From: a virus
Taxonomy: Duplodnaviria; Heunggongvirae; Uroviricota; Caudoviricetes
IMG/VR virus record: IMGVR_UViG_2667527959_000008
Location: 1-5,913 of that record
DNA: 5,913 bases
Direction: 5' to 3' (one strand)
Shown in pieces: positions 56-4,968 of this stretch. The translations under genes and the position numbers were made by a program. The notes under the pieces were generated by a model. That model worked only from the letters and a program-made list of their open reading frames with translations. It was not told the DNA's origin and did not search any database. The stretch's first letter is position 1. Each line of letters opens with the position of its first letter.

Positions 56-1432
56 TCATACGTCAGCCCCTTGTGCATATCGTCTGCCACGCGCAGCAGG
101 TGCATTTGATGCTGTGCAAATCTGTCTGGCTTCATCCTGGTCACATGCCACAAAGTGTCCGTTGCAGAACCGCTGGTAAACCGTACCAAGCGAGCCAAAA
201 CGGTTTTTCGTCACGATGATTTCAGCAAATGGTGCGGCGCTACTGTTCTCGTCATATACCGCTTCCCGATAGAGCATGATGATTGAGTCTGCGTCCTGCT
301 CAATGCTTCCTGAATCACGCAAATCTGCGTTTGTCGGGCGTTTGTTTGGTCGCTTCTCAACATCGCGCGAAAGCTGACTCAGGGAGATAACCGGTGTTTT
401 CAGGTCTTTCGCCATCGCCTTCAGGCTTCCGGAGATGTGAGCAATTGCGAGGTCGTTGCGGTCTGCTTTCGGCTTCTCAATCAGGCCAAGATAATCCGCC
501 ATGATGAGTGACAGGTTTGGATTTTCCTGTTTGTGCCGTTCTGCGATTGAGCGTATTTCTTCGACCGATAACCGCGATGCATCGACTACCCATACATCCA
601 AATCCGCAAGCTGATTCATGCCGTTAGCAACGCGTGCCCAGCCCTCGTCATCCATTGATGCAGGATTTCGCAGTACGCTAACCGACATCCTCCCGGCGTT
701 GGCAATGCTTCGCTCTGCAATCTGCAATGCGCTCATTTCCATTGAGAAAATCAATACTCCGCGCCGGACGTCAGAACCAGGAATAACGCGGCTTGCAACG
801 CCTTCGGCAATCTTCAGCGCCAGTTCGGTTTTCCCCATACCAGGACGAGCAGCGATTATCACCAGGTCTTCCGCGTTCATCCCTCCGGTGATGGCATCAA
901 GTTCTTCGATTCCGGTCTTCAGGGTATCTGACTCTTCTCCGTTCCTCAGACGCCTGTCAAGCGTGTCAGTGTAGTTGGTGATGATTTCCCCTAACCGTAC
1001 CGGTTTAACCTCGTCACGGGGCTTTCTGATGGCTGAAAGACGCTTTACAAGTTCATCCATCGCCTGACTCGATGCGTCGATGGTTCCGCTCTGAATTGGT
1101 TCACGCATTTCATCCATGATTTCCAGCACCAGACGGCGGTGATAGTTATCCGCGACCATTCCGGCATATCCCTTCAGGTTTGCGGCGCTCGGGCAGTTTT
1201 TGCTGGTCATCAGGATTGACGTGAAATGCTCCTCTCCGCACGCCTCGGCAACCATCAGCGCGTCGATTAGGTTTCTGTTTCTCGCCTGCTTGCGGATAAC
1301 CTCGAAGGCTTTCCGGTAGAGCGGAATTGAAAACGCTTCCGGCTCCAGTGTTGCCAGAACGTCACTGGCGGTTGGTGTTAATCCACCAATCAGCAGGCCA
1401 CCGATAACGCTCGCTTCGATATCCTGTTTCAT
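56..1432 (-). CDS. DnaB-family replicative DNA helicase (phage-encoded, P22 gene 12-like)
   Basis: 458-aa ORF with a DnaB-like N-terminal domain and a RecA-type ATPase core including Walker A (AARPGMGKT). Putative SD GGGGGA about 5 nt upstream of the ATG. The start ATG overlaps the stop of the upstream O-like gene (ATGA at 1429-1432), implying translational coupling. Confidence 0.9.
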
Positions 1433-2376
1433 GCAATCCCCCTGTCTGCAAACTTCCCTTCCCGAACTCCCGTTAACGAATCTTCCCTCAGCAGGTAATC
1501 AAAATCGGCCGTCCAGCCAGTGTCGTTGTCTCCGAAGTAAAACGGCTTGGCCTGATGTACAAACGCCCTGACATACGCTCTGAAACCGTCCACGTTTGGC
1601 GTTTTCAGTTGCGGGATGATTTTCTTCAGGCGGCGTTTGCGTTTCTCGTTGACCGCAACAGCGTGTGGCAGTCTGTCACCGACTTCGGTGTTGTAGGCGT
1701 TCAGGAAGGATTCGTAGTCGATTCGTTCTGCCTTGCGACGTTCATGTTTAACCTGCCCATCGCCTCCCCCATTGGGGGGTAGGGGGGTATTATTTATATT
1801 CTTGTTAATACCTTCTTGTTCATGATGTGCGGTTGTTTGTGCGGCTTCATGTGCGCTTTCATGTGCGGTATGTACGCTGAAAGCCGCGCCATTGCTGGCT
1901 TCATCATGTGCGGCATCATGTGCGGTTGTTTGTGCGGCTTCATGTGCGGGTGAATCGTCCATTTTTTGAGCATATTCATGGTAATTTGTGATGGTTATCA
2001 CGCGACCTTTTTGCTTCTCTCCATCAATGGAGATCATCCCCTCTTTCACAAAAACCTGAAGCATCCGCTCAACCTGATCACGGCTTGCTGGCTTGCCATG
2101 TCTGTCGCATAACTGAAGACCTAAATCAGCTGCTGTCACAACCAGTTGACCGGGTTGCAGATGCCATTCATGACCTTTGAAATTCGCTTTGTATGGCTTT
2201 CTGGCGGCATTCAGGAGAAGGTTTTCCCACAGGGTGCGAAGATAAACATCTTTCGCCCATGACTGTTTCAGAATGCTCCGGTACAACGGAATGTAGCCAG
2301 TTTTCTGGTTCTCCATCCTGTTGCTCCTGCGCTCGTGTGCGGCGCTGAAATCGTAGATTTTTGCTGTATTGCTCAT
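1429..2376 (-). CDS. Replication initiation protein, lambda O-like architecture (N-terminal DNA-binding domain, repeat-encoded linker, conserved phage C-terminal domain)
   Basis: 315-aa ORF starting MSNTAKI (lambda O starts MTNTAKI). The central part is encoded by the iteron array (repeated HEAAQTTAH peptide motif). It sits immediately upstream of, and coupled to, the helicase gene, in the position of lambda O / P22 gene 18. Confidence 0.8.
1789..1812. other. AT-rich segment flanking the iterons (candidate DNA-unwinding element of ori)
   Basis: TATTATTTATATTCTTGTTAATACC lies directly downstream (in gene orientation) of the iterons, the same order as iterons then AT-rich region in lambda ori. 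It is preceded by C5 (1766-1770) and two G6 runs (1774-1779, 1783-1788). Confidence 0.55.
1823..1949. repeat. Iteron array (putative ori) inside the O-like gene
   Basis: About 8 copies of TGTGCGG (one TGTGCGC) at 11-13 bp spacing in two clusters. A 31-bp block ATGTGCGGTTGTTTGTGCGGCTTCATGTGCG is repeated exactly, starting at 1824 and at 1918. Confidence 0.7.
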
Positions 2377-2378
2377 AA

Positions 2379-2651
2379 CTACCTGCCTTGACGAAAGACC
2401 TTAAGAACATCGTTAAACTGACTTACGGATATGTCTTCTTTGAGCAGCTTTTCCAGAAATGCGTTTGGAATGAACGTATATCCCTCCTCTTTTGGTAGAG
2501 ACGGGAGCAACGCCCTCGCCTCAGCCTTCAGAAGCTCAGTTCTGGCAACTTTCACAAAAGAGATTTGAGTTCTTTCATCAATGGAACGAAGGAAGCGCAA
2601 ACGCTTAGCTTCTTTGTGTGTATCAGGTGGATTAAAGCCTTTGTTTCGCAT
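2379..2651 (-). CDS. Hypothetical protein (90 aa) between cII and the O-like gene
   Basis: Start chosen at the internal ATG (2649-2651), preceded by GAGGT about 7 nt upstream and lying after the cII stop. The longer 146-aa reading from 2819 would overlap cII out of frame. The stop TAG (2379-2381) is 2 nt from the O-like ATG, suggesting coupling. No family recognised. Confidence 0.5.
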   Translation of the reverse strand: MRNKGFNPPDTHKEAKRLRFLRSIDERTQISFVKVARTELLKAEARALLPSLPKEEGYTFIPNAFLEKLLKEDISVSQFNDVLKVFRQGR

Positions 2652-2656
2652 ATAAT
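2651..2656 (+). promoter_or_regulatory. Candidate -10 element (TATAAT) of an OOP-like antisense promoter
   Basis: Perfect TATAAT on the plus strand just downstream of cII (in cII orientation), about 45 nt before a plus-strand intrinsic terminator. No convincing -35 (TGGATT at 2628-2633 is the best). Confidence 0.4.
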
Positions 2657-2662
2657 TACCTC

Positions 2663-2730
2663 GTTGGATGTTGTTAAAATTCCATTTGTATTTGATCAGA
2701 ACGCTCGGTCTTGCACACCGGGCGTTTTTT
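2663..2730 (+). ncRNA. Putative OOP-like antisense RNA overlapping the 3' end of cII
   Basis: Predicted transcript of about 68 nt from the TATAAT at 2651-2656 to the terminator at 2701-2730, antisense to the last ~55 nt of cII (stop at 2674-2676). This matches the known arrangement of lambda OOP RNA (77 nt, ending within cII). Confidence 0.45.
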
Positions 2731-2973
2731 ATTGGTGATTTCATCAAGCGCATACTTAAAAGCCCTGCTAATCGGACTGATGTCTGATGCCATTCCGAAA
2801 GCACACAAGACCGAAGCAATAAACCTCCAGTCCGTTCTGCTTATCTTCGATTCATGACAGCCAATCATCTTTGCCAGACCGCGCTGGGTAAGCGTTGACA
2901 GGTTGATGAGTAAATCAGTTTCAGCGCGATCAATTTCTCGCTGTGTTGGCTTGCTGTAACTTGCTTGTGTCAT
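2674..2973 (-). CDS. cII: Transcriptional activator CII
   Basis: 99-aa ORF whose C-terminus (ITNKKRPVCKTERSDQIQMEF) closely matches lambda CII (ILTNKKRPAATERSEQIQMEF). Contains an HTH region; SD GGAGA about 8 nt upstream of the ATG; located directly downstream of cro. Confidence 0.9.
   Translation of the reverse strand: MTQASYSKPTQREIDRAETDLLINLSTLTQRGLAKMIGCHESKISRTDWRFIASVLCAFGMASDISPISRAFKYALDEITNKKRPVCKTERSDQIQMEF
2701..2730 (+). terminator. Plus-strand intrinsic terminator inside the cII 3' coding region (putative OOP terminator)
   Basis: Stem 2702-2708 CGCTCGG pairs with 2718-2724 CCGGGCG (6 Watson-Crick pairs plus one G-U), 9-nt loop, followed by T6 (2725-2730). Confidence 0.55.
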
Positions 2974-2983
2974 TTCTTACTAT
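2951..2983 (+). promoter_or_regulatory. PRE-like CII-dependent promoter (TTGC-N6-TTGC activator site plus -10)
   Basis: TTGC (2951-2954), N6 TGTAAC, TTGC (2961-2964), then 13 nt, then TACTAT (2978-2983). Lambda PRE has TTGC-N6-TTGC, 13 nt, AAGTAT. It lies antisense within the first codons of cII and points toward cro/cI, as in lambda. Confidence 0.7.
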
Positions 2984-3094
2984 CTCCATAGATAAATAAT
3001 TTGGGTTTTTATCGTGCACCATTGACAGTCATCCTTGACCACGCCGGGCACCCGACCGTATACCGGGCCGTTCGGTACTAAAAGTACATTTTTA

Positions 3095-3325
3095 TTACAT
3101 AACAAACTGCTGTTTACCGATACGGCGAATCTGTGCTGCTGAGTACTTGCCGCCTGATGCCTTGGCGATCTTATCCGCATATTCGGTTTCACCAGTGAAC
3201 TCGGTACGCGGCAGAGAACCACGCTCAAGCCACTTATAGATGGCTTTTGGCGTAAGTCCACAAACATCAGCCACAACAGAAACTCGAACGGATTTGATAA
3301 CTTCTCCAAACGTAACTTCGTTCAT
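3095..3325 (-). CDS. cro: Cro-like HTH repressor
   Basis: 76-aa ORF with a helix-turn-helix segment (VADVCGLTPKAIYKWLERG). Strong SD AGGAGA 5 nt upstream of the ATG; divergent from cI across an operator region; followed by cII. Confidence 0.75.
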   Translation of the reverse strand: MNEVTFGEVIKSVRVSVVADVCGLTPKAIYKWLERGSLPRTEFTGETEYADKIAKASGGKYSAAQIRRIGKQQFVM

Positions 3326-3397: not shown

Positions 3398-3412
3398 TGA
3401 ACTTATGGTTCA
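3398..3412. promoter_or_regulatory. Operator OR (cI-proximal copy), palindrome TGAAC-N5-GTTCA
   Basis: TGAACTTATGGTTCA, identical to 3341-3355. It contains the ATG (3405-3407) proposed as the cI start. Confidence 0.7.
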
Positions 3413-4112
3413 ACAGAAAGAGCGTGAAACTTTCTCGCAGAGGCTTGCGCTGGCCTGTGATAAAGCGGGATTACCTTTGCATGGTAGGCAGGCTGATTTA
3501 GCTGTCAGGCTTAAGGTCACACCAAAAGCCATTAGTAAATGGTTCAACGGGGAGTCAATACCAAGAAAAGACAAGATGGAATCTCTGGCTTCGGTGCTGG
3601 GAACTACTGCTGCATATCTGCATGGCTATGCTGATTATGACGGTATCACGGTAAATCATCTATCAAGATCAAATGATTCTTATCGTGTTGATGTATTGGA
3701 TGTTCAGGCGAGCGCCGGGCCAGGAACCATGGTTTCCAATGAATTTATAGAAAAGATAAGAGCAATTGAATATACGCCCGAGCAGGCAAGAATTTTATTT
3801 AATGGAAGGCCACAGGAAAGCGTAAAAGTCATCACGGTTCGCGGTGACAGCATGGAGGGAACCATCAATCCGGGAGATGAGATCTTTGTTGATGTATCCA
3901 TAACCTATTTTGATGGAGATGGCATTTATGTGTTTGTATACGGGAAAACAATGCACGTTAAGCGCCTGCAAATGCAAAAGAACAGGCTTGCCGTCATCTC
4001 TGACAATGCCGCTTATGATCGATGGTACATAGAAGAAGGTGAAGAAGAGCAACTTCACATTCTAGCCAAAGTCCTCATTAGGCAGTCAATCGATTACAAG
4101 CGATTCGGATAA
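3405..4112 (+). CDS. cI: CI-type prophage repressor (N-terminal HTH, C-terminal S24/LexA-like autopeptidase domain)
   Basis: HTH segment (QADLAVRLKVTPKAISKWFNG), Ala-Gly cleavage site (QASAGPG), catalytic Ser in RGDSMEG and Lys in HVKRL. The ORF is open from 3240, but that part overlaps cro; in-frame ATGs at 3348, 3360 and 3405 are all possible, and 3405 is chosen because it follows the operators and promoter. Confidence 0.85.
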   Translation: MVQQKERETFSQRLALACDKAGLPLHGRQADLAVRLKVTPKAISKWFNGESIPRKDKMESLASVLGTTAAYLHGYADYDGITVNHLSRSNDSYRVDVLDVQASAGPGTMVSNEFIEKIRAIEYTPEQARILFNGRPQESVKVITVRGDSMEGTINPGDEIFVDVSITYFDGDGIYVFVYGKTMHVKRLQMQKNRLAVISDNAAYDRWYIEEGEEEQLHILAKVLIRQSIDYKRFG

Positions 4113-4119
4113 AAATAAA

Positions 4120-4216
4120 TTTCCTTAAAGTTCACTAACTTATGATGTAGTGAGCTTTTTATACCCATAAAATGTACTATTGGTACTTTACATTAATGAA
4201 CTTTAAGTACATTATA
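4120..4216 (+). promoter_or_regulatory. Candidate OL/PL region (operator-like half-sites and an early-left promoter candidate)
   Basis: Operator-like 15-mers: 4197-4211 TGAACTTTAAGTACA (11/15 to the OR 15-mer) and 4120-4134 TTTCCTTAAAGTTCA (10/15). An inverted repeat TCACTA/TAGTGA (4132-4137 / 4148-4153) contains AACTTATG, shared with the OR core. Promoter candidate: -35 TTTACA (4187-4192) with a -10 in ATTATAAGT (4211-4219). The position just after cI corresponds to lambda OL/PL. Confidence 0.4.
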
Positions 4217-4388
4217 AGTCCATCGAAACAACACAGCGTTTCGGTCAGTCGAACGGCGCGACAGTAAACCATGCGTCGGACCATAGGCGGGCTCAGGAAG
4301 AGCGGCAATTATGGCAAAGCGATTTACCAGCAGCTCTTTGCGAGGGGCTGACGGCAAATCTACTCCACTTATTTAAAAGAGACGGTAT

Positions 4389-4562
4389 ATGGATAATCAG
4401 GATAATGAGTTAAGAAAGGTTGTTCAGGAACTTGCTGATGAAGAAGGCATCAGCTTTTCCGATGCCCTAGATGTTTCGATTAAAGCGCTGCGTTATGAGG
4501 TAGAGCGCAGAAAATCGTTTAACGGTGAAGCTGCTTGTGATGGCTCTGCAATTACTTCTTAG
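4389..4562 (+). CDS. Small acidic hypothetical protein (57 aa)
   Basis: ORF MDNQDNELRKVVQELADEEGISFSDALDVSIKALRYEVERRKSFNGEAACDGSAITS, absent from the supplied track (presumably below its length cut-off). Weak SD (AAGAGA 8-13 nt upstream). About 13 acidic versus 7 basic residues. Its 3' end overlaps the convergent minus-strand gene by 11 nt. Confidence 0.35.
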   Translation: MDNQDNELRKVVQELADEEGISFSDALDVSIKALRYEVERRKSFNGEAACDGSAITS

Positions 4563-4830
4563 CCAAGTACCAAGAGGTGTCTGCGGCTTCGGAAACCAGT
4601 ACGTAATAGCTTTGCTTTACACTACTAGCTATACCTCTGACTTCCTCTCTAACGTTATATGCAGTTGATGTTTTTACGGTTGTATATTCAGCTGTTGGGA
4701 GGTTAAACCAAGTGCCATTACCATCCTGTATCTCACGCGAATAACCCTTTGCTTTCATCTTTTCATGAAGATTTTCATAGTCTTCAGAATCAGCGCCGCG
4801 CAACTCAACTCGAACAATATATCTTGCCAT
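4552..4830 (-). CDS. Hypothetical protein (92 aa), own promoter, transcribed opposite to the early-left genes
   Basis: Start chosen at the ATG at 4828-4830 (MARYIVRVELRGADSEDYENLHEK...), preceded by AGGA about 9 nt upstream. The 139-aa reading from 4971 would cover the promoter, repeats and terminator hairpin. Predicted alternating beta/alpha small protein. It faintly recalls a prophage-associated DUF family, but I cannot name it with confidence. Confidence 0.6.
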   Translation of the reverse strand: MARYIVRVELRGADSEDYENLHEKMKAKGYSREIQDGNGTWFNLPTAEYTTVKTSTAYNVREEVRGIASSVKQSYYVLVSEAADTSWYLAKK

Positions 4831-4890: not shown

Positions 4891-4895
4891 AGCAA
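4866..4895 (-). promoter_or_regulatory. Candidate sigma70 promoter for the 92-aa minus-strand gene
   Basis: On the minus strand: -35 TTGCTT (plus 4890-4895), 18-nt spacer, -10 TGATAT (plus 4866-4871), about 30-nt leader to the ATG at 4830. Confidence 0.4.
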
Positions 4896-4944
4896 AGGGA
4901 CACGGGCCGGGCGTGGATAAAAATCCCGGCACCAACCATCGCAA

Positions 4945-4968
4945 AGCCGCCACCTGAGCGGCTTTTTT
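4945..4968 (+). terminator. Plus-strand rho-independent terminator
   Basis: Stem AGCCGC (4945-4950) / GCGGCT (4958-4963), 7-nt loop CACCTGA, followed by T6 (4963-4968). Oriented to stop plus-strand transcription that has run antisense across the 92-aa gene. Confidence 0.65.

Follow-up and report, generated by a model that had tools for sequence, protein, structure and literature searches.

The OOP RNA of phage lambda, a self-terminating antisense transcript of 77 nt, inactivates expression of cII (PMC3349717, PMC5869508), and PMC5869508 and PMC7067206 cite Krinke and Wulff (1987, 1990) for an RNase III-dependent reduction of cII. The 77-mer spans lambda positions 38675..38599, begins with GTTGATAG and is preceded by a CATAAT hexamer 8-13 nt upstream (PMC5869508). 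Its promoter, pO, is not defined by its hexamers alone: a 45-bp fragment carrying the -10 and -35 (pO45) was non-functional and a 94-bp fragment (pO94) worked (PMC5869508), and the same paper cites a LexA site in the lambda oop-pO region. Hayes et al. described a 33-bp block (ACTGGATCaATCcACAGGAGTaATTATGaCAAA), comprising the pO -10 and the 5′ end of oop, that is conserved in 23 lambdoid phages. Beyond lambda, an oopRNA is annotated in phage 21 (AJ237660), P22-type phages have the layout cII-oop-orf48-18-12 (PMC3349717), and an OOP transcript of the Salmonella prophage BTP1 has been annotated from RNA-seq (PMC7067206), with no coordinates for it found in the supplements of that paper.

The window analysed here is a 5,913-nt stretch of viral DNA that represents the immunity and replication region of a lambdoid prophage, in reversed orientation relative to the usual lambda map. 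The nearest database relatives of positions 2300-3100 are Stx2a-converting phages (97.7% identity over 88% of the query), and of 5426 complete E. coli genomes, 2311 contain parts of the window. The features relevant to the following are:

56-1432, minus strand: DnaB-type helicase gene
1429-2376, minus strand: O-like replication gene
2379-2651, minus strand: 90-aa gene (orf90) of unknown function between cII and the O-like gene, phrog_2519
2628-2633, plus strand: TGGATT, best -35-like hexamer, a weak 3/6 match with a 17-bp spacer
2651-2656, plus strand: TATAAT, -10 hexamer of a pO-like promoter, assigned from sequence and conservation in relatives
2663-2731, plus strand: predicted OOP-homologous antisense RNA of 69 nt (GUUGGAUGUUGUUAAAAUUCCAUUUGUAUUUGAUCAGAACGCUCGGUCUUGCACACCGGGCGUUUUUUA), assigned by homology, ends inferred
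2674-2973, minus strand: cII, 99 aa (Pfam Phage_CII, E 1.4e-34)
2698-2730, plus strand: tO-type intrinsic terminator, stem 2698-2728 and T6 at 2725-2730, found by scan and fold
3095-3325, minus strand: cro-like gene
3405-4112, plus strand: cI-type repressor gene

The stretch at 2628-2731 on the plus strand is likely to be a pO-oop-tO unit whose product, a short RNA antisense to the 3′ end of cII, would lower levels of CII, the activator of lysogeny. An earlier note on this DNA had proposed an OOP-like RNA from the geometry of the site; alignment now backs that proposal with homology. The 3′ 51 nt of the predicted RNA (2681-2731, from TCCAT on) are identical to the annotated phage 21 oopRNA at 47 of 51 positions, and 44 of 51 aligned columns match the OOP RNA of lambda. 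On these alignments, the region 2663-2731 is homologous to OOP rather than merely similar in layout, and the element is an unannotated, common member of the known OOP family with a shorter and different 5′ leader. GenBank annotation of the closest phages, e.g. LC487996 and HF4s, has no RNA feature under the match. Rfam, searched with the window at a cutoff of E 10, likewise returned no match at 2650-2740; this blank is uninformative, because the oop regions of lambda and phage 21, scanned as controls, gave only noise, i.e. Rfam has no OOP family.

We placed the 5′ end of the predicted RNA from the spacing to the -10 and from the GTTG start common to lambda, and the 3′ end by analogy with the lambda 77-mer. 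The resulting 69 nt (G2663 to A2731) fall within the 65-75 nt foreseen by the earlier note and would pair perfectly with the last 57 nt of cII, stop codon included, as well as with 11 nt of the spacer between cII and orf90. The cII gene itself ends in TNKKRPVCKTERSDQIQMEF at the protein level, resembling the TNKKRPAATERSEQIQMEF of lambda CII.

The terminator is the strongest intrinsic terminator in the window. Its stem comprises 12 pairs, six of them G-C, and closes a 7-nt loop in the scan; the phage-21-type loop sequence is UCUUGCACA. Lambda tO gives identical pair counts in the same scan. Folding of the 70-nt stretch 2664-2733 yielded -20.3 kcal/mol (z = -3.3), a value reached by none of 200 shuffled sequences. 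As claimed previously, the structure lies within the 3′ coding region of a true cII gene, on its antisense strand, and the gap of about 45 nt between hexamer and terminator holds as 45 nt to position 2701, or 41 nt to the start of the stem at 2698. We rejected a reading of the same hairpin as a minus-strand terminator: the scan reported none in that direction, where no T-run follows the hairpin, and pR transcripts should thus pass through it.

The promoter is the less certain half of the unit. There is indeed a perfect TATAAT opposite cII, and it shares one base (2651) with the ATG of the 90-aa gene (2651-2649, minus strand), both as described before. The Shine-Dalgarno sequence of this gene, GAGG (2662-2659), occupies the stretch from the -10 to the predicted start at G2663, so that the ribosome-binding site (GAGG plus ATG) and the pO-like promoter core coincide; the gene itself is real, with a full-length match to phrog_2519 (E 1.9e-57). 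Judged as a sigma-70 promoter, the site has a -10 that is perfect, correctly placed and conserved, together with a -35 matching at three of six positions and no TGn extension, the bases before TATAAT being GCA. A consensus promoter scan of the window left the site uncalled, because its -35 falls below the 4/6 cutoff, while the same scan found lambda pO. A bare TATAAT is not significant either (2 copies in the window versus 2.1 expected); its pairing with the terminator exceeds chance because the arrangement is conserved in relatives. Promoter strength cannot be read from homology, since the DNA upstream of this site bears no relation to lambda O, and this strength is the main uncertainty of the whole reading.

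Side by side with lambda, the two loci share the position antisense to the cII 3′ end, a -10 over the ATG of the next gene, the GTTG start and an equal tO stem. They differ in that the lambda RNA is 77 nt and the predicted one ~69 nt, in that lambda has a strong 5′ stem and a LexA-like box, neither of which occurs in the window, in the -10 (TGtCATAAT in lambda versus TATAAT without TGn) and the -35 (4/6 versus 3/6), and in the gene after cII, which is O in lambda and the 90-aa ORF here. Phage 21 has an identical terminator, including the 9-nt loop UCUUGCACA, but combines it with a lambda-type promoter and 5′ leader and carries O directly after cII. In the BTP1/P22 type, a cII-like gene with an antisense terminator in its 3′ end is again followed by a CATAAT over the ATG of a small ORF and then by an O-like gene and a DnaB-type helicase gene; here, however, the BTP1 terminator (GCCUCGAAGAA...UUCUUCGGGGC) is unrelated, the leader is of the lambda type with GTTGATTGATCCAG, and the cII gene belongs to another family.

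To assess conservation of the hexamer, we fetched IMG/VR loci by the terminator sequence alone, which gave 118 analysable loci. In 117 of these, GAACGC is preceded at a distance of 39-54 nt by a [C/T]ATAAT that overlaps the ATG of whichever gene comes after cII; the single exception is an unrelated, GC-rich match. At least seven unrelated N-termini are found among the genes that follow cII in this sample, including those of lambda O, the 90-aa gene, three small ORFs of ~47-53 aa, an ORF with a Cys/His-rich N-terminus (HNH-like by eye) and one other. The junctions are mosaic and have part of their descent in common, so the classes are not fully independent. The TATAAT stands 42 nt before GAACGC in all 78 + 31 loci with the window-type leader. 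Much of the conservation of -10 and terminator could reflect shared descent of the mosaic junction.

Every tabulated CATAAT class is preceded by TGn, i.e. an extended -10, whereas the TATAAT classes, the window included, have GCA at this place. In the CATAAT classes (loci L004-L285), the TGn is the opposite strand of a second codon ending in CA (ACA, GCA or CCA), with locus L021, which lies outside the tabulated classes and has AGG before CATAAT, as the exception. Selection on the promoter may therefore constrain the second codon of the unrelated genes after cII, and the perfect -10 of the TATAAT classes would fit a compensation for the absent TGn.

For the terminator, we used a scan with the lambda-type leader, which returned cII families with different 3′ ends. 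Five other hairpin types, of unrelated or altered sequence, were found at the same place (933W, phi330, P22/BTP1 and the types of loci L221 and L236), each retaining a hairpin and U-run on the antisense strand; the 933W hairpin, for instance, reads AGAGUCCCCGG...CCGGGGAUUUUUU. Between the lambda/21 and the 933W/phi330 hairpins, two pairs are changed on both sides (C-G to U-A and G-C to C-G), and 99.1% of cells are paired, as compared to at most 65% when the 3′ arm was slid as a control, but these compensatory changes carry modest weight because they represent, in essence, a single evolutionary event. Further evidence for a conserved terminator comes from the unrelated hairpins of the P22 type.

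The leader is where the window departs from lambda. It comprises 18 nt (GTTGGATGTTGTTAAAAT) versus 29 nt in lambda, making it about 12 nt shorter, and only the initial GTTG is confidently common to both. A gapped alignment of the two required four short gaps, for which reason we treat these 18 nt as not alignable and do not adopt descent by deletion. Leaders of this type were found at no fewer than 118 loci in the IMG/VR scan, counting the window itself and one GenBank phage, and, among the matches listed, were always joined to a lambda-type or 21-type tO. They make up about a third of the loci in the terminator-anchored sample and are present in many Stx2a-converting phages. Allowing up to 3 mismatches, the 33-bp pO/oop block is not found in the window; it describes one leader type and lies outside a functional definition of OOP.

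In lambda, a LexA-like box (CTGTTGATAGATCCAG) lies across the +1 position. A search for CTGT-N8-ACAG-like sites with up to 1 mismatch returned none near 2600-2740 of the window. Within the 33-bp block, a LexA-box-like 16-mer (CTGTNGATNGATCCAG) spans the OOP start (locus L002, 463-478, corresponding to lambda 38662-38677), and 16-mers of this type also occur in the leaders of 933W, phi330 and BTP1 (L126, L127 and L125). This 16-mer may be one reason for the conservation of the block.

A strong 5′ stem is predicted for the lambda- and 933W-type RNAs, whereas the window type yields only a 4+2-pair stem. We do not propose a conserved 5′ hairpin in the window-type RNA: natural variants, L115 (GTTAGATG...AAAACTCCA) and L070 (AAAATCCCA), break its pairs, and the breaks are uncompensated. 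That short-leader OOP RNAs form a distinct regulatory subclass, with synthesis uncoupled from the SOS response and a different RNA stability, is a tentative and rather doubtful extension of these differences. If true, the phages concerned, some of them with toxin genes, would have a shifted set-point between lysis and lysogeny.

By analogy with lambda, the unit would work as follows. RNA polymerase would start about 7 nt after TATAAT, probably at G2663, and transcribe against the pR operon until the tO hairpin and U-run inside cII, releasing the RNA of ~69 nt. RNase III would cleave the duplex of this RNA with the cII mRNA, leading to decay of the message; as CII fell, lytic growth would be favoured. 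For this locus we infer the transcription, the exact RNA ends, the RNase III dependence and the effect on lysogeny from the sequence features, the homology to annotated OOP RNAs and the conservation of promoter hexamer and terminator structure, all of which are directly observed. Convergent transcription from pO may in addition damp pR transcription into the replication genes; on this path, the 90-aa gene would come first.

This last step could also be the main one. Convergent transcription from pO, opposing pR transcription into orf90 and the O-like and helicase genes, would then tune replication, with the antisense RNA being secondary; we regard this as possible but unlikely, and it is compatible with an antisense role rather than exclusive of it. 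In lambda, pO activity reduces transcription from pR, and a pO- mutation hampers the replication of phage and plasmids alike (PMC3985674). Here, the pO core sits exactly on the ribosome-binding site of the first gene after cII and upstream of the repeat-bearing O-like gene. However, both cII inactivation and the inhibition phenotype in lambda needed an intact oop, not just initiation at pO (PMC3349717), and a terminator so strictly conserved within cII speaks for a short, defined RNA product.

The element could alternatively be silent, with TATAAT reflecting only the A/T-rich spacer and start context of orf90 and the hairpin being kept as code for the CII C-terminus (KKRP...TERS) inherited from a lambda-like ancestor. 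The chance frequency of a bare TATAAT, the weak -35 and the uncalled promoter are in line with this, and the stem arms do encode conserved CII residues. A hexamer pattern kept before unrelated genes is, however, what a promoter would predict, because translation does not require the hexamer: ATTATG or ATTATATG is retained before at least seven unrelated genes, and translation needs neither. Moreover, cII families with other C-terminal sequences keep an antisense hairpin and U-run, with compensatory changes, and lambda CII can do without its last 17 residues and still be active (PMC3349717). Together, these points make a silent element improbable. A start further downstream, at the extended -10-like TGtTAAAAT (2672-2680; TGT followed by TAAAAT, 5/6), which would yield an RNA of ~45 nt with little beyond the terminator and the 10-15 nt before it, is more improbable still, as frequent natural variants (GTTATTAAAAT) lack the TG and the site has no counterpart in lambda-type leaders and no -35.

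Several further observations concern the surroundings of the putative pO-oop-tO unit. Within the O-like gene, at ~1816-1950, the raw sequence contains repeated units of the CATGTGCGG/TTGTGCGG type, which also encode repeats in the protein and are probably origin iterons, as in lambda. A 12-mer (YCGAACGGCSCG) is common to both early leaders, at 3066-3077 (minus strand), between cro and cII, and at 4248-4260 (plus strand), downstream of a pL-like promoter (TTTACA-17-CATTAT, 4187-4215). These copies could be antitermination sites of the nut or put type; folding of the two early-leader regions was no better than that of shuffled sequence. There is no obvious N-like ORF after the pL-like promoter, and a 57-aa ORF at 4389-4562 has no Pfam or PHROG match. 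Finally, Rfam weakly matches 4892-4968 (plus strand) to isrK, an sRNA of Salmonella prophages, at 21.3 bits (E 0.23), where the gathering score is 50. This region has two hairpins, the second being a strong terminator (GCCGCCACCTGAGCGGCTTTTTT), and adjoins a GhoS-like ORF at 4552-4830 on the minus strand (Pfam GhoS, 9.8e-5; phrog_8894).

The practical value of recognizing this OOP copy lies in annotation, as it is unannotated in the closest GenBank phages and the 33-bp probe earlier used for oop loci would miss its leader type. The biological gain is small: lambdoid mosaics keep both a terminator antisense to cII and a -10 that overlaps the ATG of the following gene. Within this arrangement, a common leader variant that is devoid of lambda's LexA-like box and 5′ stem could alter OOP regulation in Stx2a-type prophages.
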